34,596 nt of DNA, from IMG/VR virus record IMGVR_UViG_2657244943_000010; one strand, 5' to 3'. Every line of letters starts with the position of its first letter. Positions within the stretch are counted from its first letter, which is position 1. Shown piece after piece: positions 1,782 to 9,565 of the stretch. Under the pieces are notes generated by a model. It saw nothing but the letters and a program-made list of their open reading frames with translations. It had not been told where the DNA came from and did not search any database. Origin of the DNA: a virus (lineage: Duplodnaviria; Heunggongvirae; Uroviricota; Caudoviricetes). A program made the position numbers and the translations under genes.

Positions 1782-1799
1782 GATGCAGGGAGTTTTGAT

Positions 1800-2141
1800 A
1801 TGAAACAGCAACGTAATTCACGCTTTCGTAATGGTGCTGAACGCCACGCTAACCGTTTCGCTACCAGTGCATCACGCAGCAACATCCGCTACAGCCTGAG
1901 TGATACACACGCAACGCCGGATGGCTACCCAGTAAAACAAATCGGCGAGCATGCCTGGCTGATTGAGAAAGCTGGAATCGTGGTCCACAAATGCCCACGC
2001 AATCCGTTTACCGGAAACCGCATTTTTGCATTGAGCTGCGGCGACAATCAATTCGGGCAGGATTTCACATTATACGAAGCACTTCGCACGGTTGATCGTC
2101 TGCTGCGTGGGCAAAGTTTTATTAAACAGGCTGATTTATAA
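1800..2141 (+). CDS. Hypothetical early-operon protein (113 aa)
   Basis: ORF with GGGAG RBS, tightly packed after cox; no family confidently recognised. Confidence 0.6.
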   Translation: MKQQRNSRFRNGAERHANRFATSASRSNIRYSLSDTHATPDGYPVKQIGEHAWLIEKAGIVVHKCPRNPFTGNRIFALSCGDNQFGQDFTLYEALRTVDRLLRGQSFIKQADL

Positions 2142-2151
2142 CAGGTGCTTT

Positions 2152-2430
2152 ATGACCAAAGAGCATGCACAAGGTGTATTTATCCGTTTTATTGATTTTC
2201 GCGGTGAACTGTTATTACGCGCATCAGCCATTGACGGAGTTGTTCCATCCGAAAAAAACGCAGCTACTTACGTTTATCTGAACGGTACGCGCCTGACTGT
2301 GGAGCTTCCGTACCAGACCGTGCGAGAAATCATTAGCGAAGCTGAAAAGGCACGTCAGGTTAATGGCGATGAACCATATATCGAAATTATTTGTATGGAT
2401 TCAGAAGCTGAAATTCAGAAAGCAGATTAA
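2152..2430 (+). CDS. Hypothetical early-operon protein (92 aa)
   Basis: Internal ATG of track ORF 2092..2430 chosen to avoid overlap with the upstream gene; weak RBS. Confidence 0.5.
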   Translation: MTKEHAQGVFIRFIDFRGELLLRASAIDGVVPSEKNAATYVYLNGTRLTVELPYQTVREIISEAEKARQVNGDEPYIEIICMDSEAEIQKAD

Positions 2431-2441
2431 AGGGCGTTGCG

Positions 2442-2684
2442 ATGGGCAAAGAATATAAAACTCTCATTAACAAAGCACTTGAACGATTTTATTTTCGCTT
2501 AAGTGCATCAGGCGATCATGCTGAACGTGCAGCCCGTGACTCATTGACCAGGGCAATCCGGAGTTTGTATGACGTCGCTTTTTACGCTGATGATCTGGAT
2601 GCACTTAACGAACTTTCCGAGCTGATCTGTGCCGCAGAATGCGGGGAACATATTGAACCGTATAAGCTGGGGAATATTGCATGA
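2442..2684 (+). CDS. Hypothetical early-operon protein (80 aa)
   Basis: ORF with AAAGGG RBS; helical, charged composition. Confidence 0.6.
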   Translation: MGKEYKTLINKALERFYFRLSASGDHAERAARDSLTRAIRSLYDVAFYADDLDALNELSELICAAECGEHIEPYKLGNIA

Positions 2685-2794
2685 GTATATTTATCTCATG
2701 GCTTGTTCTGATTATTTCGGTGGCCTGCGCCATTGGGATTATGCGAATTATTCATTCAGTAAAAAAGATTGAACGCTTTTTCACTGGCGAATAA
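2681..2794 (+). CDS. Small hydrophobic peptide (37 aa), translationally coupled
   Basis: ATG 2681 overlaps the TGA of the upstream ORF (ATGA); translation MSIFISWLVLIISVACAIGIMRIIHSVKKIERFFTGE has one predicted TM helix; below the ORF-track size cutoff. Confidence 0.35.
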   Translation: MSIFISWLVLIISVACAIGIMRIIHSVKKIERFFTGE

Positions 2795-2880
2795 CAGAGC
2801 AAATAAAACCACAGGTTAAATAAGAAAATGTAAAAACAATCCGCATTCGCGGAGGTATTCGCACACGCCAAGGAGGCGTA

Positions 2881-3084
2881 ATGGCAATTAAGCATTTTCC
2901 TGTCGTTCGTTTTACCTCCAGAGGACGTGAATACGAAGTCGACGAACGCCTGATTACCACAATCGACAAACACCGTTCAGAAAAGGATGCACATCACATC
3001 TATCTCACTGACGGCACTTACTTCTGCGCCACGAATGTGGTGCGGGTGAACCTTATCCGACAGGTACAGGAGTCACGCAGATGA
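2881..3084 (+). CDS. Hypothetical protein (67 aa)
   Basis: ORF with AAGGAGG RBS 6 nt upstream. Confidence 0.6.
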   Translation: MAIKHFPVVRFTSRGREYEVDERLITTIDKHRSEKDAHHIYLTDGTYFCATNVVRVNLIRQVQESRR

Positions 3085-3326
3085 CCATTCTGGACTATAT
3101 CGCCGCCAATCCGGGGTGTAGCGGTGGAGAAATCGCCGCAGCACTGAATACCCCAACCACAGCCATTAATGCGGAGTTACGCCGACTCTGGCGCAGCGGT
3201 TCAGTCATAAGAAAAGAACGCAAAACAGGCGGTCGCTTTTCTTACCAGATAAACCCGATGCCGTTCGGGTGCGGCAATCCACTTACCAACATGTTTAACC
3301 AGCTACTGAAGGAAGCCAGAGCATGA
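3081..3326 (+). CDS. Putative winged-helix DNA-binding protein (81 aa)
   Basis: ATGA overlap with upstream gene; N-terminal DYIAANPGCSGGEIAAALNTPTTAINAELRRLWRSGSV resembles a winged-helix recognition module. Confidence 0.5.
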   Translation: MTILDYIAANPGCSGGEIAAALNTPTTAINAELRRLWRSGSVIRKERKTGGRFSYQINPMPFGCGNPLTNMFNQLLKEARA

Positions 3327-3622
3327 GCGCCATCAACCACCAGGAATTACGCGAACTGGCGATTGACCTGCAACGAATGGCAACGCATCAAAAATTACTG
3401 GCGTTTCGCGCAATGCTCTCGCCGTCTGCCGTGCTGGCACTGCTGGATGAGCTGGAGCACGCCAGAACCATGTCTCCAGCCATTCGCCTGGCGCTCCATC
3501 ATGAAATCGCTGATTTCTGCGCACCACTGGGGTCGCCTGGTGAACCAGAAACGCCGGAAGCAATGCAACGAGAGCTACTGCAACGCATCGACAAGGTTTT
3601 TGATTTCTTCCTTAACCAGTAA
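3323..3622 (+). CDS. Hypothetical protein (99 aa)
   Basis: ATGA overlap with upstream gene; helical acidic protein. Confidence 0.55.
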   Translation: MSAINHQELRELAIDLQRMATHQKLLAFRAMLSPSAVLALLDELEHARTMSPAIRLALHHEIADFCAPLGSPGEPETPEAMQRELLQRIDKVFDFFLNQ

Positions 3623-3633
3623 AGGACCTCGAT

Positions 3634-3837
3634 ATGAACAAAAAGACCTGGTTTCGCGCATACATGTGGGCGCTGGTATGCGTCCTCGTTTCTCTCATTC
3701 TGTATGCAGGACTACTCCCCCGAATGATTTCATCAGACAGCTCCTTCCTGGTATTGCTGGGCATTTTCATTGCCATGCTGTACCCGGCAGGCGTTGTTCG
3801 CCTTTTCAGTAAGTACATCAAGGAAATCAAACAATGA
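3634..3837 (+). CDS. Small two-TM membrane protein (67 aa)
   Basis: Two hydrophobic segments (WALVCVLVSLILYAGLL and FLVLLGIFIAMLYPAGVV); stop overlaps start of the SPFH gene (ATGA). Confidence 0.55.
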   Translation: MNKKTWFRAYMWALVCVLVSLILYAGLLPRMISSDSSFLVLLGIFIAMLYPAGVVRLFSKYIKEIKQ

Positions 3838-4664
3838 AGAAATTCAAACTCTTTCAGATTCTCCCGCTTTTTGCTGCCATTCTGCTGGTTGGTTGCGATC
3901 GCGTTGAGCCAGGTAATGTGGGCATCAAAGTCAACAAACTGGGCGACGACAAAGGCGTCGGTGAAGTGGTTGGCGTTGGACGCTACTGGACAGGCTGGAA
4001 TACAGAGGTTTACATCTTCCCAACCTTCAAACAAATGAAGACCTACGATGAGCCGTTCAGCTTTCAGATGAGTGACGGCACAACCATCGGCTATCACATC
4101 GGTGTGGCCTACAAGGTTGATCCATCCAAAGTTACTACAGTGTTTCAGACCTACCGCAAAGGCGTGGATGACATTACCGACACTGACCTGCGCCAGAAGA
4201 TCGCCGACGCACTCAACCGACTGGCCAGCAAAATGACCACCGATAAATTTATCGACGGTGGCAAGTCTGAACTGCTGGATTCAGCACTTAAAGACATTCA
4301 GGCAGAAATGACACCTATCGGCATTCAGGTAATGAGCCTCTCTTATGTCGGTAAACCGGAATACCCACCAACCGTTATCGACAGCATTAATGCCAAAGTC
4401 ACGGCAAACCAGAAAACTCTGCAACGCGAACAGGAAGTCAAGCAGCGCGAAGCAGAAGCCAACATGCTACGCGCAGAAGCAGCCGGACAGGCTGATGCCA
4501 TTCGCACAAAAGCCCAGGCTGAAGCCGACGCCATTCGTTTGCGCGGAGAAGCTCTGCGCCAGAACCCCGGCGTTATGGAGCTGGAAGCTATCAACAAATG
4601 GAACGGCACGCTGCCGCAATATATGACCAGTAATACCGCTGTTCCGTTTGTTCCGGTGAAGTAA
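3834..4664 (+). CDS. SPFH / band-7 (stomatin-prohibitin-like) domain lipoprotein
   Basis: 276 aa; N-terminal signal with lipobox LLVGC; central region reads like an SPFH fold; C-terminal Ala/Glu/Arg/Gln-rich coiled-coil tail typical of band-7 proteins. Confidence 0.75.
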   Translation: MKKFKLFQILPLFAAILLVGCDRVEPGNVGIKVNKLGDDKGVGEVVGVGRYWTGWNTEVYIFPTFKQMKTYDEPFSFQMSDGTTIGYHIGVAYKVDPSKVTTVFQTYRKGVDDITDTDLRQKIADALNRLASKMTTDKFIDGGKSELLDSALKDIQAEMTPIGIQVMSLSYVGKPEYPPTVIDSINAKVTANQKTLQREQEVKQREAEANMLRAEAAGQADAIRTKAQAEADAIRLRGEALRQNPGVMELEAINKWNGTLPQYMTSNTAVPFVPVK

Positions 4665-4670
4665 TTAAAC

Positions 4671-4714
4671 CCGGCCAGTGGAAACCGCTGGCCGGAGCAG
4701 CATCAGGATTTTTT
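4671..4714 (+). terminator. Stem-loop after the SPFH gene (candidate intrinsic terminator)
   Basis: CCGGCCAG (4671-4678) pairs perfectly with CTGGCCGG (4688-4695); T6 run at 4709-4714 is not immediately adjacent, so termination efficiency is uncertain. Confidence 0.4.
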
Positions 4715-4810
4715 AGTATGCCGTTCTCACAAAAAACCGCTTGCCATGCCGCAATCAGTCAGGTTACATTTCCGCTGCACCATCATAAAATGGGTGCCGG
4801 GATTTCCACC

Positions 4811-4852
4811 CCGCTGACTATACACGCGCACAACCGCGCCAGCGGTTTTTTT
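4811..4852 (+). terminator. GC-rich bulged hairpin followed directly by T7
   Basis: CCGCTG (4811-4816) pairs with CAGCGG (4840-4845), inner GCGC/GCGC stem, then TTTTTTT 4846-4852; the 9-nt bulge is one copy of the ACTATACAC repeat. Confidence 0.4.
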
Positions 4853-5021
4853 GTGCGTACCGTATCGCCACGTCTTTTTCGCGTCAGAATTATGGTGGGG
4901 CGTATGGGGCCGACTTCGGTCGGGCCGGGTTCGTGTATAGCCGGTTGTGGAAACCCTGTACGTCTCACCACCCCGAGTTTTCCACCTCTGGATGGTGAGT
5001 TTTCAAAACTTACTATACACG
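4818..5021. repeat. Three copies of 9-mer CTATACACG (two direct, one inverted) in a non-coding region
   Basis: CTATACACG at 4818-4826 and 5013-5021 (direct); CGTGTATAG at 4932-4940 (inverse); flanks also similar between the direct copies. Confidence 0.7.
4998..5010. promoter_or_regulatory. Perfect 13-bp palindrome AGTTTTCAAAACT upstream of the next gene (candidate operator)
   Basis: 6+1+6 palindrome centred at 5004, about 28 bp upstream of ATG 5032 and abutting a CTATACACG repeat. Confidence 0.4.
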
Positions 5022-5031
5022 AGGCCACACC

Positions 5032-5262
5032 ATGGCAAACCGCAAACAGCACCGCGCTATCGCGGAGCGTCGTCACATCCAGACTGAAATCAACCGCAGA
5101 CTTTCCCGCGCATTCCGCGTCGCTAAAATCATGCACATCAATATGCTGCATGAGCGTAGCTGCGAACTTTCAAACCTCTATTCATCCGCTGTTTTCAGCT
5201 ATCTGGCGGATGATCTGCGCGAGCTTCAGCAGCTCATCCAGCAGCAAAACAAACTCCATTAA
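5032..5262 (+). CDS. Hypothetical protein (76 aa)
   Basis: Charged helical ORF immediately downstream of the repeat/palindrome region. Confidence 0.55.
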   Translation: MANRKQHRAIAERRHIQTEINRRLSRAFRVAKIMHINMLHERSCELSNLYSSAVFSYLADDLRELQQLIQQQNKLH

Positions 5263-5334
5263 TTCCTGTTCCGGGCCTTTCCTGCACCTTGCGGCGGGAG
5301 GCCTTCGCACATCTGTAACAAGAGGATTGCCGCA

Positions 5335-5700
5335 ATGATTCTCGCCAATGACTTTCTTGAATACCTGCTCAACACAGAGCGTGATCTTGCCGCTCGCGTG
5401 CGTGATCGTTATGACATGTACCTGAAATCCCTGCCTGTACCGCAGCTCGCTGACGGAAAGATTGTTATTGATGGTCGCTACATGATTGACAGCCACGAGG
5501 GAAATTACAGGCTTTACCGCATTGAAGGTGGCACCCCGTCCGTTATTGGCATTTACCAGCGCCCATCCTCTGCAATCGTCGATGTGATTGCCGACAGCAT
5601 CCGCATCACACATCGCCATGCCGACACAGAAGACACCGTGCTGGAAATTCAGCGGCTGGCTACAGTCTGCCGCGACACCATGAATGGCATGACGAAGTAA
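5335..5700 (+). CDS. Hypothetical protein (121 aa)
   Basis: ORF with AGAGGA RBS; directly precedes gene A. Confidence 0.6.
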   Translation: MILANDFLEYLLNTERDLAARVRDRYDMYLKSLPVPQLADGKIVIDGRYMIDSHEGNYRLYRIEGGTPSVIGIYQRPSSAIVDVIADSIRITHRHADTEDTVLEIQRLATVCRDTMNGMTK

Positions 5701-5706
5701 ATCACT

Positions 5707-8529
5707 ATGACGGCAGAGTACATCAGGGACTGGCAACAACCGCGCCACGCAGTGGGGCGTGAAGGAACGGGGATCCCCGCTCCTGAATCCGCGCTTTCCT
5801 CCTGGCTGGATGCCTACCGGGTAGAGAACGAACGCCGCCAGGAAATGGCTGATGCGGCGTTCTCCGCCACGCCGCTGGGCAACCTGATTAATAAAAGCCT
5901 GGACGCACAGGAAAAACAGGACAAAACCATCACACTGGCAGGAGACGCCAGAAAACAGGCACGCGGCGCGGTGGATGAAGCCATGGCCTCGCTGCGCCTG
6001 CTGCCGTCCTATCTGCGCGATCCGCTTATTCGCCACCTCTCCTTCCTGCGCAAAAAACAGGAAGCCGATCGCCGGAAAGGCAAAAAGAGCTGGCAGGCGG
6101 AACGCTATGCACGCGGAACCCTGCGCAAAATATTCGAACGTCTGGATCGCACTGACGGACACTGGCTGACACCGGGTTATCGCTCCCTTGCCGGACGCGA
6201 ACGCCTGGACGATTTGCTTTACCTGCCGCAGCTCAACAAACACCAGATACAGACGCTGGCCACCATGACGGCGGCGATGTTCAGCAGCACCTTCGAAAAA
6301 CTCTGCGATGGCTTTGGCGCGACTGATGGCGAACTGACCATGGATGTAACGCTGAAGGCGTATCAGATGCTGGCCCGCATGGCGTTACACCTGCACGCCA
6401 TGCCTCCACATTATGACGCACTGACAACAGACAAAGACCGGAGGAACGAACCGGACACGGAGCTGCTGCCGGGCGCAATCCTCCGCCTGACCTGTGCGGA
6501 ATGGTGGAAACGCAAACTGTGGCTGTTACGTTGCGAGTGGAGAGAAGAACAACTCCGCGCCGCCTGTCTGGTTTCCAGAAAAACATCGCCCTATCTGAGC
6601 CAGGACGCGTTAAGCGAGTTTCGCGCACAGCGCGAGAAAACACGCGATTTTCTGAAAAGTTTCATGCTGGAAAACGAAGACGGGTTCACGATTGATCTCG
6701 AGACAGTGTATTACGCGGGAGTAAGTAACCCGGTTCACCGTAAGGCAGAAATGATGGCCACCATGAAGGGGCTGGAACTTCTGGCCGAAGCCCGTGGCGA
6801 CAGAGCGGTGTTTCTGACTGTCACCTGCCCGTCAAAATACCACGCAACAACGGAGAACGGTCATCCGAATCCCAGATGGAACGGGGCCACCATGCGCGAC
6901 TCCAGCGATTACCTGGTTAACACGTTTTTTGCGGCGGTCCGCAAGAAACTGAACCGCGACGGCCTGCGCTGGTATGGCATCCGCACGGTGGAGCCTCACC
7001 ATGACGGCACCGTGCACTGGCATATGATGGTCTTTGCTCATCCGGAAGAAATCGACACTATTGTGTCCCACACCCGCGATATTGCCATTCAGGAAGATCG
7101 TCACGAGCTGGGTGATGATATTACCCCACGCTTTAAGGCGGAGTACGTCGACGGCTCAAAAGGCACACCGACCAGCTACATCGCCACCTACATCGGGAAA
7201 AACCTGGACAGCCGTGCCGTGGATGGCATCGACCCGAAAACGGGCAAGCCACGCGTTGACCACGAAACCGGAAAATCAATGGCCGAGAGCGTGGAACGCG
7301 CCATCGGCTGGGCGCGCCTTCACCGGGTCCGCCAGTTCCAGTTCTTTGGCATCCCCTCCCGCCAGGTATGGCGTGAACTGCGCCGCCTTGCCAGCCAGAT
7401 GGCACGCAACCCGGAAGGCCCGCAACGGCTGAAGGATGACGCAATGGATGCGGTTCTTGCCGCCGCTGATGCCGGATGTTTTGCCACCTACATAGAGAAA
7501 CAGGGCGGCGTACTTGTTCCACGCAAAGACTACCTGATTCGCACCGCCTACGACCTCGCCGATGAGCTGAACGATTACGGCGAACAGAGCGTACAGATTT
7601 ACGGGATCTGGTCACCACTCATCGGGGAATCCTCCCGTGTGTGCACGCATCCGGATAACTGGAAGCTGGTAAGACGCAAACCGGAAGCGGAAGACAGCGC
7701 CCGCGAAAATGGTTTTGACCTTCAGGGCGGCCCTGCCGCCCCTTGGACTCGTGGCAATAACTGTCCCCGTGTACAGGAAACGGACAACAACGGGACAGAA
7801 CAGCCGGAAGAACGGCCAGCACCGTGGCCGCAGCTTCCTGACGGCGTTGATGTGGATGAATGGATGCGCTCACTGAAACGGCACGAACGCCGGGCGCTGA
7901 TGCGTTCGCTGCGTGACAAACAGGCAAAAAACAGCAGTGATGAAATGCAGAGCTGGACACAGAGCCGCAAACAGCAGCGGCCTTTGCCTGATAACCACGA
8001 ATTACTCGCTAAAGAATGGCGGGAGTCTGCCGAATCTCTCGGCCTGCATATCGGTGAACAGCAGATGCAGCACCTGTTACGGGGCGGCAGCCTGTACGTT
8101 GACGGCAGCATCATTGCACCGCAGGGATTTGAAATTGTACGCAAACCGGATACCCGCCCGGACAGCCGAATCACGCAGCTCTGGCAGCGCCTGAGCCGTA
8201 ATCACGGCGTAAGCAGCACGGAGATCCGCCATAACCCGGTCGCCGGCTATCTGGAGCAGCTGGGGGCATCAGACCCCGAAGCCGCCGCACGCCTGGCATC
8301 CACACTTCAGCAGGACCAGAACACCATGAAAACCCCCGTTACCGTGCTTTCTGACATGCTGCGCGCCATCCGTGACGCAGAGCACGCACAGAGAATCAGT
8401 GAAACCACTGAACGCGCCCACCACAAAGCAGACCTGCTGCGGGGTAGCCTGACCAGTGGAAACAAAAAACAGACAGAAACGGGATTCACAAATCCCATAA
8501 ATGAGCAAAAAACGCACCATAAAACATGA
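5707..8529 (+). CDS. A: Rolling-circle replication initiation endonuclease, P2 gpA family
   Basis: 940 aa; HUH-type motif HDGTVHWHMMVF and tyrosine pair SYIATYIGKNLD as in P2 A; long low-complexity C-terminal extension. Confidence 0.85.
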   Translation: MTAEYIRDWQQPRHAVGREGTGIPAPESALSSWLDAYRVENERRQEMADAAFSATPLGNLINKSLDAQEKQDKTITLAGDARKQARGAVDEAMASLRLLPSYLRDPLIRHLSFLRKKQEADRRKGKKSWQAERYARGTLRKIFERLDRTDGHWLTPGYRSLAGRERLDDLLYLPQLNKHQIQTLATMTAAMFSSTFEKLCDGFGATDGELTMDVTLKAYQMLARMALHLHAMPPHYDALTTDKDRRNEPDTELLPGAILRLTCAEWWKRKLWLLRCEWREEQLRAACLVSRKTSPYLSQDALSEFRAQREKTRDFLKSFMLENEDGFTIDLETVYYAGVSNPVHRKAEMMATMKGLELLAEARGDRAVFLTVTCPSKYHATTENGHPNPRWNGATMRDSSDYLVNTFFAAVRKKLNRDGLRWYGIRTVEPHHDGTVHWHMMVFAHPEEIDTIVSHTRDIAIQEDRHELGDDITPRFKAEYVDGSKGTPTSYIATYIGKNLDSRAVDGIDPKTGKPRVDHETGKSMAESVERAIGWARLHRVRQFQFFGIPSRQVWRELRRLASQMARNPEGPQRLKDDAMDAVLAAADAGCFATYIEKQGGVLVPRKDYLIRTAYDLADELNDYGEQSVQIYGIWSPLIGESSRVCTHPDNWKLVRRKPEAEDSARENGFDLQGGPAAPWTRGNNCPRVQETDNNGTEQPEERPAPWPQLPDGVDVDEWMRSLKRHERRALMRSLRDKQAKNSSDEMQSWTQSRKQQRPLPDNHELLAKEWRESAESLGLHIGEQQMQHLLRGGSLYVDGSIIAPQGFEIVRKPDTRPDSRITQLWQRLSRNHGVSSTEIRHNPVAGYLEQLGASDPEAAARLASTLQQDQNTMKTPVTVLSDMLRAIRDAEHAQRISETTERAHHKADLLRGSLTSGNKKQTETGFTNPINEQKTHHKT

Positions 8530-8569
8530 AGTGCGCGCAAAACAGGCAAAAACGGGATTTCAGAATCCC
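8481..8569. repeat. Two related palindromic elements upstream of parM (candidate centromere/operator)
   Basis: AAACGGGATTCACAAATCCC (palindrome 8481-8496, inside the 3' end of A) and AAACGGGATTTCAGAATCCC (palindrome 8554-8569, intergenic). Confidence 0.4.
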
Positions 8570-8605
8570 GTATACGGTTAATTAATCAACATAAGGAAAA
8601 TCGAC

Positions 8606-9565
8606 ATGAAAATTTGTATCGACGACGGCTCCACCAACATCAAGCTGGCATGGACTGAGAACGGCGAACGCCGCAACGCCATCAGCCCGAACAGTTTCAA
8701 GTCGGAATGGTCTGCGCCGTTCGGTGGCACGCAGCCCGCGAACTACATGCTTGATGGCGTGCGCTATGGTTTTGATCCGGTCAGCGATCGCTTTGTCCAG
8801 ACGACCGACACGCAATACCAGTACAGCGATGTGAATGTCATTGCCATTCATCATGCGCTGGTCAAATCAGGCATCACGCCACAGGAGGTGGATGTAGTTG
8901 TCACCCTACCACTGAGCGAGTATTTCGACACAAACGCACAGCCGGACATGGTCAACATCAACCGCAAAAAAGCGAACGTTATGCGCCCGGTGGAGTACCA
9001 GAACGGCGAGGCATTCACTATCCGTAACGTGCGGGTTATGCCTGAATCCATTCCGGCTGGCTTTAAAGCACTGGCTGACATGAGTCCGTTTGAATCCCTG
9101 CTGATTGTGGATTTGGGCGGAACCACGCTGGATGTGGCAAAGGTTCAGGGGCAACTGGCAGGTATCAGCCAGGTGTTTTGCGATCCACACGTAGGCGTTT
9201 CTCTGATGGCCGATGCCGTGCTGTCGGTGATGGCCACCAACGGTATGCGCACCAGTCACCACATCGCCAATACCATTATCGAACATCGCCACGATGAAGC
9301 CTGGCTGCGCCAGCACATCCACAATGACGCGCATTATGCCAGCCTGATGGCAGTTATTCGTGAAAAGGAGGAAACACTGAAACAACGCGTGATCCGTGCG
9401 CTGGCGGGTTTTTCGGGTTACGGGCGGGTGATGGTTGTAGGTGGAGGAGCGGAGATTGTGGCACCCGCTATCCGCGAAGCCTGCGGAGTTAATGCGACTT
9501 TCATCGCGGACGGGGTGCCACAGTTTGCTCTGGTTAATGGGCTGTACGCAATGGACAAGGAGTAA
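8606..9565 (+). CDS. parM: ParM-type actin-like partition ATPase
   Basis: 319 aa, AAGGAAAA RBS; N-terminus ICIDDGSTNIKLAW ... ISPNSFKSEW ... YQYSDVNVIAIHHALVKSGI closely parallels plasmid R1 ParM/StbA as I recall it. Confidence 0.85.
   Translation: MKICIDDGSTNIKLAWTENGERRNAISPNSFKSEWSAPFGGTQPANYMLDGVRYGFDPVSDRFVQTTDTQYQYSDVNVIAIHHALVKSGITPQEVDVVVTLPLSEYFDTNAQPDMVNINRKKANVMRPVEYQNGEAFTIRNVRVMPESIPAGFKALADMSPFESLLIVDLGGTTLDVAKVQGQLAGISQVFCDPHVGVSLMADAVLSVMATNGMRTSHHIANTIIEHRHDEAWLRQHIHNDAHYASLMAVIREKEETLKQRVIRALAGFSGYGRVMVVGGGAEIVAPAIREACGVNATFIADGVPQFALVNGLYAMDKE

Follow-up and report, generated by a model that had tools for sequence, protein, structure and literature searches.

Members of the SPFH family occur in every domain of life and in numerous viruses, and the function of their cages is still debated. 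HflK/C, prohibitin and erlin are SPFH proteins on the non-cytoplasmic side of the membrane that are paired with AAA proteases or degradation machinery, and FtsH-HflKC controls lambda CII. We know of no phage SPFH protein to which a function has been assigned. Envelope proteins involved in exclusion are familiar from phages (T4 Imm/Sp, T5 Llp, Cor, HK97 gp15 and TP-J34 Ltp); they are small inner-membrane proteins or lipoproteins that are non-essential, often early and patchily distributed. The closest described gene pair is that for gp19 and gp20 of coliphage N4, whose genes overlap. Here we analyze a two-gene cassette located near one end of a 34,596-nucleotide stretch of phage DNA (IMG/VR record IMGVR_UViG_2657244943_000010), the whole of which is called the window below. 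A reading of the letters alone, referred to as the original prediction, had proposed that the cassette encodes a small membrane protein and an SPFH/band-7 lipoprotein, and that it serves the lysogen as a defence moron. The results presented below identify the cassette as a counterpart of N4 gp19-gp20 that is carried as accessory cargo by a P88-like prophage, and they are consistent with an envelope module that would act early in infection.

Both open reading frames (ORFs) of the original prediction were recovered. The ORF for the 67-amino-acid (aa) protein is located at positions 3634-3837 and that for the 276-aa protein at positions 3834-4664; like the other features of the cassette given below they lie on the + strand. 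The two ORFs overlap by 4 nt, with stop and start codon joined as ATGA, in support of the proposed translational coupling. The sequence read-out places a Shine-Dalgarno sequence (AGGA, 3623-3626) 7 nt ahead of the ATG of the first gene and directly after the TAA stop codon (3620-3622) of an upstream ead/Ea22-like early gene.

Pfam, PHROG, BLASTP and Foldseek searches agree that the second gene encodes an N4 gp20-like SPFH/Band-7 lipoprotein, as had been proposed. The 276-aa protein matched Pfam family Band_7 (PF01145) with an E value of 7.6e-31 (107.9 bits against a cut-off of 23.6) over residues 23-209 (Pfam envelope; positions 3900-4460), and this match spans positions 2-176 of the 176 of the profile. 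The match to phrog_200 (PHROG 200, 'lipoprotein') had an E value of 4.9e-112. The N-terminus displays a basic n-region (K2, K3 and K5) and a hydrophobic core ahead of the lipobox L18-V19-G20-C21, with D22 as the next residue. The lipoprotein signal peptide ending in LVGC is encoded at positions 3834-3896 with the Cys21 codon at 3894-3896. Cys21 is invariant across 11 divergent homologues; the residue that follows it (+2) is D, Y, S, E or N. In E. coli, Asp at +2 retains a lipoprotein in the inner membrane. According to this rule the SPFH lipoprotein of the P88-like window should remain in the inner membrane, a predicted property that is not family-wide; because the +2 residue is variable, the anchoring membrane may differ between lineages.

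The AlphaFold2 model of the 276-aa protein, calculated as a monomer with a mean predicted local distance difference test (pLDDT) score of 74.6, consists of a signal helix, a beta-rich SPFH1 subdomain (aa 21-95), an alpha/beta SPFH2 subdomain (aa 97-176) and one long helix (aa 179-243, encoded at 4368-4562). The latter, which corresponds to the coiled-coil wall segment of SPFH cages and can be aligned to the coiled coils found in HflK and prohibitin-2, is the 'coiled-coil tail' of the original prediction. It is followed by the motif KWNGTLP (4596-4616), which is conserved among homologues as KW(N/D)G.LP, with K255, W256, G258 and P261 invariant from enteric to crAss-like and Staphylococcus phages. 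Foldseek aligned the full length of the model with HflC/HflK, erlin1/2, prohibitin, stomatin, flotillin and QmcA (8z5g) with a probability of 1.00 and E values of 1e-13 to 1e-7, each of which has a solved structure that forms a closed membrane cage. The nearest PDB proteins in a sequence comparison are HflK (E 7e-4) and prohibitin-2. The matches to the HflK/HflC equivalog models remained below threshold (TIGR01932, 24.8 bits against a cut-off of 134.4; TIGR01933, 22.7 against 159.4). The 276-aa protein is an SPFH/Band-7 lipoprotein, and its mature part makes up a complete protomer in which SPFH1 and SPFH2 precede a helix of 65 residues and a C-terminal segment that is conserved.

The first gene encodes an N4 gp19-like inner-membrane hairpin protein, as indicated by profile matches, BLASTP and its hydrophobic segments. 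The 67-aa protein matched phrog_1130 (PHROG 1130, 'membrane protein') with an E value of 1.3e-22 and contains two hydrophobic segments, at about residues 9-28 and 38-58, which are separated by the turn PRMISSDSS (3718-3744). Since both termini are basic, the protein is expected to adopt an N-in/C-in topology, in which the turn would be periplasmic. This predicted turn holds two of the four most conserved positions in an alignment of 66 unique partner sequences (Pro 97%, Ser 95%), and the other two are located at the start of the second transmembrane (TM) segment (Val 89%, Gly 98%). A Pfam search with E values up to 0.1 produced no NfeD or holin family and only a sub-threshold match to the TM region of RseC_MucC (E 0.032), and an NCBIfam search produced no match. 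An NfeD-like partner, for which the original prediction had suggested a check, was accordingly rejected; moreover, 67 aa leave no space for the soluble domain.

The partner and the SPFH lipoprotein are tightly linked. In a survey of IMG/VR loci with a hidden Markov model built from seven partners, all 80 enteric loci and 66 of the 67 complete loci of the Pseudomonas clade had a partner ORF immediately ahead of the SPFH gene. Nearly all pairs overlap, and the overlap is exactly 4 nt in 130 of 155 pairs. A homologous two-TM ORF also directly precedes the SPFH gene in Moo19, Piffle, Pacha and Burkholderia E253, and it is found one gene away in KNP2. In phiP27 (L003 2262-2450), in RCS47 (L004 2230-2466) and in several P1 records we observed a homologous partner ORF that overlaps the start of the SPFH gene and has been left unannotated. 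Furthermore, partner, lipobox-type signal and SPFH domain form a single polypeptide in at least 14 of the 150 best representatives of the 50%-identity clusters (P0124, P0131, P0135, P0138, P0141, P0149, P0152, P0160, P0169-P0171, P0194, P0200 and P0244). Several of these fusions lack an internal Met, which indicates that they are genuine. They provide Rosetta-stone evidence, at the level of sequence, that the partner and the SPFH lipoprotein act together, and they fit a predicted topology in-TM1-out-TM2-in-signal-out with the SPFH domain in the periplasm. If signal peptidase II cleaves the fusion at its internal lipobox, both proteins would be obtained from one precursor. One further representative, P0129, has a partner-like segment at its C-terminus instead.

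Comparison of enteric contexts of the P2, P1 and phiP27/Stx types (L003, L004 and L014-L093) revealed that the two proteins differ strongly in conservation. The mature SPFH proteins are 96.5-100% identical, whereas the partners are only 20-55% identical across these contexts and the signal peptides differ too. DNA similarity begins just past the signal-peptide region (3834-3896 in the window), constituting a sharp mosaic boundary. This mosaic reflects either recurrent recombination of a conserved mature SPFH protein with different partner and signal segments, or faster evolution of the partner.

The pointer to the archetype came from the annotation of the N4-like phage Moo19. In BLASTP comparisons the SPFH lipoprotein is 63% identical to N4 gp20 (E 4e-129) and the 67-aa protein 28% identical to N4 gp19 (E 1e-8), and gene order is as in the window. 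The cassette genes are already annotated in phage P88 and belong to known PHROG families, of which N4 gp19/gp20 is the archetype. The statement of the original prediction that no characterised system matches this layout holds in so far as the literature that we searched contains none; the layout itself is known, being that of N4 gp19-gp20. A tblastn search detected SPFH relatives in 716 of 50,697 phage records. Temperate carriers include P88, phiP27 and Stx2 phages and P1-like phage-plasmids, and virulent carriers include N4-like, Vequintavirinae, Kolesnikvirus, Kayvirus, Enterococcus, crAss-like and jumbo phages. The pair recurs, nearly always with overlapping genes, in P2-like, lambdoid/Stx, P1-like, N4-like and Pseudomonas phages; strictly virulent phages with the same pair include N4, Moo19, Piffle and KNP2, and Kayvirus has a related pair. 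An exhaustive phmmer search produced 221 clusters (50% identity) at E values up to 1e-30, and by sequence this lipoprotein group is a distinct subfamily of moderate size. The IMG/VR search with a diverse alignment returned close relatives only, and that with a Kolesnikvirus query two loci, so that our survey of distant clades consists of hand-picked phage records and the Pseudomonas clade. The SPFH gene carries the label 'serine protease' in numerous Stx2-phage records and also in the original record of phiP27, but the family searches lend this label no support.

At about 95% identity, the window matches Escherichia phage P88 (Peduoviridae, Xuanwuvirus; P2 family). The P88 annotation lists the counterparts as gp11 ('membrane protein') and gp12 ('lipoprotein / putative SPFH domain protein'), and the latter shares 99.6% identity with the SPFH protein of the window. 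Most relatives of P88 are without the cassette; the close relatives P884B11, PhiR44_2, Shae_phiSM, 569R5 and 705R2 match the flanks only. Alignment with Xuanwuvirus P884B11 showed that 1,108 bp of the window (3623-4730) replace 22 bp of that phage (L002 4301-4322), and that the sequence on either side (1790-3622 and 4731-9000) can be aligned at about 95% identity. The insertion begins one base past the stop codon of the upstream early gene and contains the ribosome-binding site, the partner gene, the SPFH gene, a hairpin and a 36-bp tail. We read this as a cassette inserted where the first early transcription unit ends (3') in a P2-family prophage that resembles P88. A foreign origin could not be deduced from base composition, since the difference between a GC content of 0.48 in the 5' part and about 0.53 in the flanks is too small.

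In agreement with the original prediction, P2 contains no such genes between cox and A. The presence/absence survey likewise favored its view of the cassette as accessory cargo: among 5,426 complete E. coli genomes, 145 contain the full cassette and 531 the SPFH gene, and in about 956 the junction between ead and the downstream region is contiguous (empty or with smaller cargo). Within this E. coli set, 195 matching places are on plasmids, and those among the matches listed are all of phage-plasmid size. Other prophages hold different cargo at the same place, namely a 48-aa ORF plus a 186-aa helix-turn-helix (HTH) protein (L169 612-1346) or a 183-aa HTH protein (L170 615-1166), which indicates that the slot between ead and the downstream RNA module is a general variable site. 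The cassette is thus accessory cargo in a variable slot. A defence hotspot at this slot was considered and rejected; the alternative cargo encodes HTH DNA-binding proteins, and the PADLOC matches are at chance level only.

Signals of expression were looked for at both ends of the cassette. A consensus scan of the + strand between positions 2495 and 4741 detected no sigma-70-like promoter site. The moron claim of the original prediction is therefore sustained in part: the cassette is inserted between genes that are adjacent in relatives (separated by the 22 bp in P884B11), but the consensus scan gave it no promoter of its own. The same scan found no promoter upstream of the pair in P1-like and phiP27 contexts either, and hence is uninformative there. 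At the other end, the strong hairpin noted at 4671-4695 proved real. It is a GC-rich stem-loop (4672-4694) of 10 bp with a 3-nt loop, located 8 nt past the stop codon of the SPFH gene; the surrounding 76-nt region folds at -28 kcal/mol (z = -3.2), and in P2-type copies the stem is kept by compensatory changes (GUGG/CCGC, GUGA/UCGC and GCGA/UCGC). The hairpin travels with the P2-type cassette and is absent from P1-type and lambdoid contexts. A canonical intrinsic terminator was rejected because there is no adjacent T-run: the T-run at 4709-4714 is located 14 nt past the stem, and the terminator scan of the + strand makes no call.

The region that follows has signals of its own. Promoter-like sites at 4741-4791 are located ahead of two RNA genes identified by Rfam, an isrK-type Hfq-binding small RNA (4777-4852, 51.2 bits) and a C4-type antisense RNA (4888-4975, 77.3 bits), after which a 76-aa protein of the 'Derepression' family is encoded (5032-5262). 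The region 4741-5262 thus looks like a P1 immI / P4-type unit of antisense RNA and antirepressor that is separate from the cassette. With such a separate unit downstream, a stem-loop at the end of the cassette would not necessarily deprive replication gene A of transcripts.

Taken together, these results allow the following explanation to be proposed. The cassette would be a mobile two-gene phage module, the counterpart of N4 gp19-gp20, that has become inserted in a P88-like early region. The SPFH lipoprotein would be made at coupled stoichiometry with the 67-aa hairpin protein and, by analogy with solved full-length SPFH proteins, would assemble into a closed multimeric cage on the periplasmic side, of which the two-TM protein may be an obligate membrane-embedded partner or client. 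Because it has no detectable promoter of its own and appears to be read together with the early lytic genes, the module would act in infected or induced cells and not in the resting lysogen, exerting an accessory function on the envelope of the infected cell early in infection. For anatomy, partnership and lytic-phase timing taken together we consider the chances to be about even. As to its role, the most plausible suggestion, which we make tentatively, is that a membrane patch is fenced or sealed against the entry of DNA from superinfecting phages, resulting in exclusion during lytic growth. We put this role first because of its exclusion-annotated neighbour, the patchy distribution, the fast divergence of the partner and an architecture like that of exclusion proteins. 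A gene annotated as 'superinfection exclusion' (P22 gp17-like) is located just upstream of the pair in N4 (gp18, L173 669-983) and in Moo19 (gp29, L005 1891-2205), and such a P22 gp17-like gene adjoins the SPFH gene in the Vi01-like phage PhiSH19 (PMC3220722). The exclusion-annotated neighbour and the divergence of the partner are suggestive only. That the cage instead sequesters a host membrane protein such as FtsH appears unlikely, though it is worth keeping in mind; other roles, taken together, carry the remaining weight.

Several observations weigh against the envelope module as proposed. The promoter scan was a simple consensus search, which a weak or non-sigma-70 promoter could escape. 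The +2 residue is not conserved (D in the window, Y in N4, S in the Pseudomonas clade), and the last 30 residues of the SPFH lipoprotein are poorly modelled by AlphaFold2 (pLDDT below 50). Cage formation and partner binding are what we infer by analogy. Gram-positive and crAss-like phages carry family members without the two-TM partner, and the breadth of the family would argue for a generic rather than a phage-specific target. A 'superinfection exclusion' annotation on a neighbouring gene counts for little as evidence, and a paper of June 2026 calls the role of the SPFH lipoprotein in phages unclear (PMC13239085). Concerning SPFH, band 7 or HflK-HflC proteins in phages, N4-like phages and mbpS, the literature that we searched contains annotations and speculation only and no functional study.

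The same data allow the alternatives to be weighed. According to the original prediction the cassette is a moron that is expressed by the lysogen and protects it from other phages through superinfection exclusion or abortive infection. This would suit the accessory nature of the cassette and the variability of its slot in a P2-family prophage, and the envelope location is shared with many exclusion proteins; the occurrence of the SPFH gene in 531 of the 5,426 E. coli genomes is compatible with a benefit to the host, and in the P1-like RCS47 the pair is located downstream of oppositely oriented genes, so that some promoter of its own is needed there. However, the insertion adjoins the early gene before it and shows no promoter-like site, either inside or immediately upstream, and the same pair is carried by obligately virulent phages, for which there is no lysogen to be protected; both observations speak against production from the lysogen. 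Nor did the defence reading gain from PADLOC-DB v2, which contains no model that matches the SPFH protein and gave for the partner only PDC-M18B (E 0.0078, 14 bits, over 21 TM residues), a match at chance level, and the other cargo seen at the slot consists of HTH proteins and not of recognised defence genes. We therefore regard a lysogen-defence function as decidedly unlikely. A different possibility is that the module mimics HflK/C, its periplasmic cage capturing or displacing FtsH or another membrane protease and thereby stabilising phage membrane or regulatory proteins, which could bias the lysis-lysogeny decision in temperate phages. HflK is indeed the top PDB match by sequence, and the best structural matches include HflK/C along with prohibitin and erlin. 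Yet equivalog scores of 23-25 bits are far from cut-offs of 134-159, there is one SPFH gene rather than a heteromeric pair, the anchor is a lipid and not the N-terminal TM helix of HflK, and the virulent carriers have no lysogeny decision to bias; in addition, a two-TM partner of its own suggests that this partner, and not FtsH, is the client. This mimicry is unlikely on balance, although it retains some appeal.

Two other readings start from particular contexts. The module might time lysis, with a holin-like small protein corralled by an SPFH scaffold, or with membrane rafts serving the export of lysis enzymes. The partner resembles a class-II holin in its 67 aa, two TM segments and charged C-terminus, the Kayvirus genes mbpV/mbpS are located between lysK and the transglycosylase gene tgl, and the authors of the Kayvirus study speculated that MbpS aids Tgl secretion (PMC7150955); a crAss-like phage likewise has its SPFH gene near a peptidoglycan hydrolase gene. 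On the basis of these Kayvirus and crAss contexts we rank lysis timing third, after exclusion and HflK/C-like action. The N4-like pair is nevertheless found among non-late genes beside RNA polymerase 2, the partner has no Pfam holin match, and the Kayvirus partner has a single TM segment and is missed by our two-TM partner model. For the P88-like phage a link with the lysis cassette was rejected on distance, as the holin/endolysin cassette of P88 is about 13 kb off in the late region. A lysis-timing device is, in our view, improbable. Finally, the protein could be a lysogenic-conversion or virulence lipoprotein acting on the animal host. Activation of Toll-like receptor 2 (TLR2) is a generic property of bacterial lipoproteins and is therefore of little help to this idea, which further leaves the conserved two-TM partner and the fusions unexplained and sits poorly with the conservation of the pair in environmental and virulent phages of many hosts. 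Its precedent is PM0222, a prophage-encoded HflK/C-like SPFH protein of Pasteurella multocida; this protein is shed with outer-membrane vesicles, is an activator of TLR1/2 and plays a part in virulence in mice (PMC9872710). We consider a virulence role very improbable here.

An early envelope module remains the explanation that we favor. In its most far-reaching form it would be a hitherto unrecognised class of envelope device, in which virulent and temperate phages alike produce, early in infection, a periplasmic SPFH cage that brings along a two-TM client and walls off part of the inner membrane against the entry of rival DNA or neutralises a host membrane machine such as FtsH or a membrane-acting abortive-infection effector. 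This is a speculative proposal and rather doubtful as a whole; if true, it would give a viral SPFH protein its first defined function. The strict pairing or fusion with a two-TM partner and the spread over virulent and temperate phages lift the cassette above the routine. The module is small, non-essential and portable, occurs in tractable phages (P88, N4 and P1-like) and comes with an obligate partner of its own, which makes it a convenient system to study what an SPFH cage encloses and why viruses use one. For annotation the results mean that the 'serine protease' label is unsupported, that several records lack the small partner ORF, and that, without expression data, the pair is not to be listed among lysogen defence systems.

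Some observations concern the neighbourhood of the cassette. A 206-aa ORF (4718-5338) extends over both RNA genes, and its only Pfam match, to Phage_ASH, is below the cut-off (E 0.0019); related records call it 'transcriptional regulator' (P884B11) or 'ash family protein', and some mark it as a pseudogene (PGAP). This ORF is probably not protein-coding. Downstream of gene A the window encodes a ParM-type actin-like segregation protein (8606-9565; StbA_N, E 5.6e-82; ParM_N, E 1.2e-68). In P88 the ParM-type gene is followed by a partition protein gene, which amounts to plasmid-style partition in an integrating phage of the P2 family.

Comparison with known systems places the module as follows. 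Its likeness to the envelope exclusion proteins T4 Imm/Sp, T5 Llp, Cor, HK97 gp15 and TP-J34 Ltp is one of general logic only: Pfam and PADLOC searches gave no sequence or family relation to the module, and none of these proteins is SPFH. Staphylococcus Kayvirus MbpV/MbpS shares the small membrane-protein gene directly before the SPFH gene and the KWNG motif. It differs in that MbpS is 24% identical to the SPFH protein of the window and has no typical lipobox, that MbpV consists of one TM segment and a charged tail, and that mbpV/mbpS have their own annotated promoter and terminator and are located beside lysis genes. In the SPFH-NfeD operons (QmcA-YbbJ, YqiK-YqiJ, and the archaeal stomatin with its NfeD protease) an SPFH gene is also co-transcribed with a small membrane-protein gene, but neither an NfeD nor an OB-fold domain is present in the partner of the window. 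QmcA and YqiK are, moreover, on the cytoplasmic side, while the SPFH protein of the window is predicted to be exported. With E. coli HflK/HflC the module shares the SPFH1-SPFH2-coiled-coil-C-terminal architecture and an SPFH domain predicted to face the periplasm. HflK and HflC are two SPFH paralogues that form a heteromer and have an N-terminal TM anchor each; the window has a single SPFH gene, a lipobox anchor and a 67-aa non-SPFH neighbour with two TM segments. Coliphage N4 gp19-gp20 comes closest, with the same two genes in the same order and likewise overlapping, both proteins of the window matching PHROG 1130/200. N4 is virulent and has the pair among its non-late genes, whereas in the window the pair is inserted in a temperate early region and is followed by a 3' hairpin. 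N4 gp20 (L173 1257-2093) reads CYDR after the lipobox where the clade of temperate phages reads CDR (window 3894-3902), and by the +2 rule this one-residue difference, Tyr against Asp, would shift the predicted site of the lipoprotein from the outer membrane in N4 to the inner membrane in the window.

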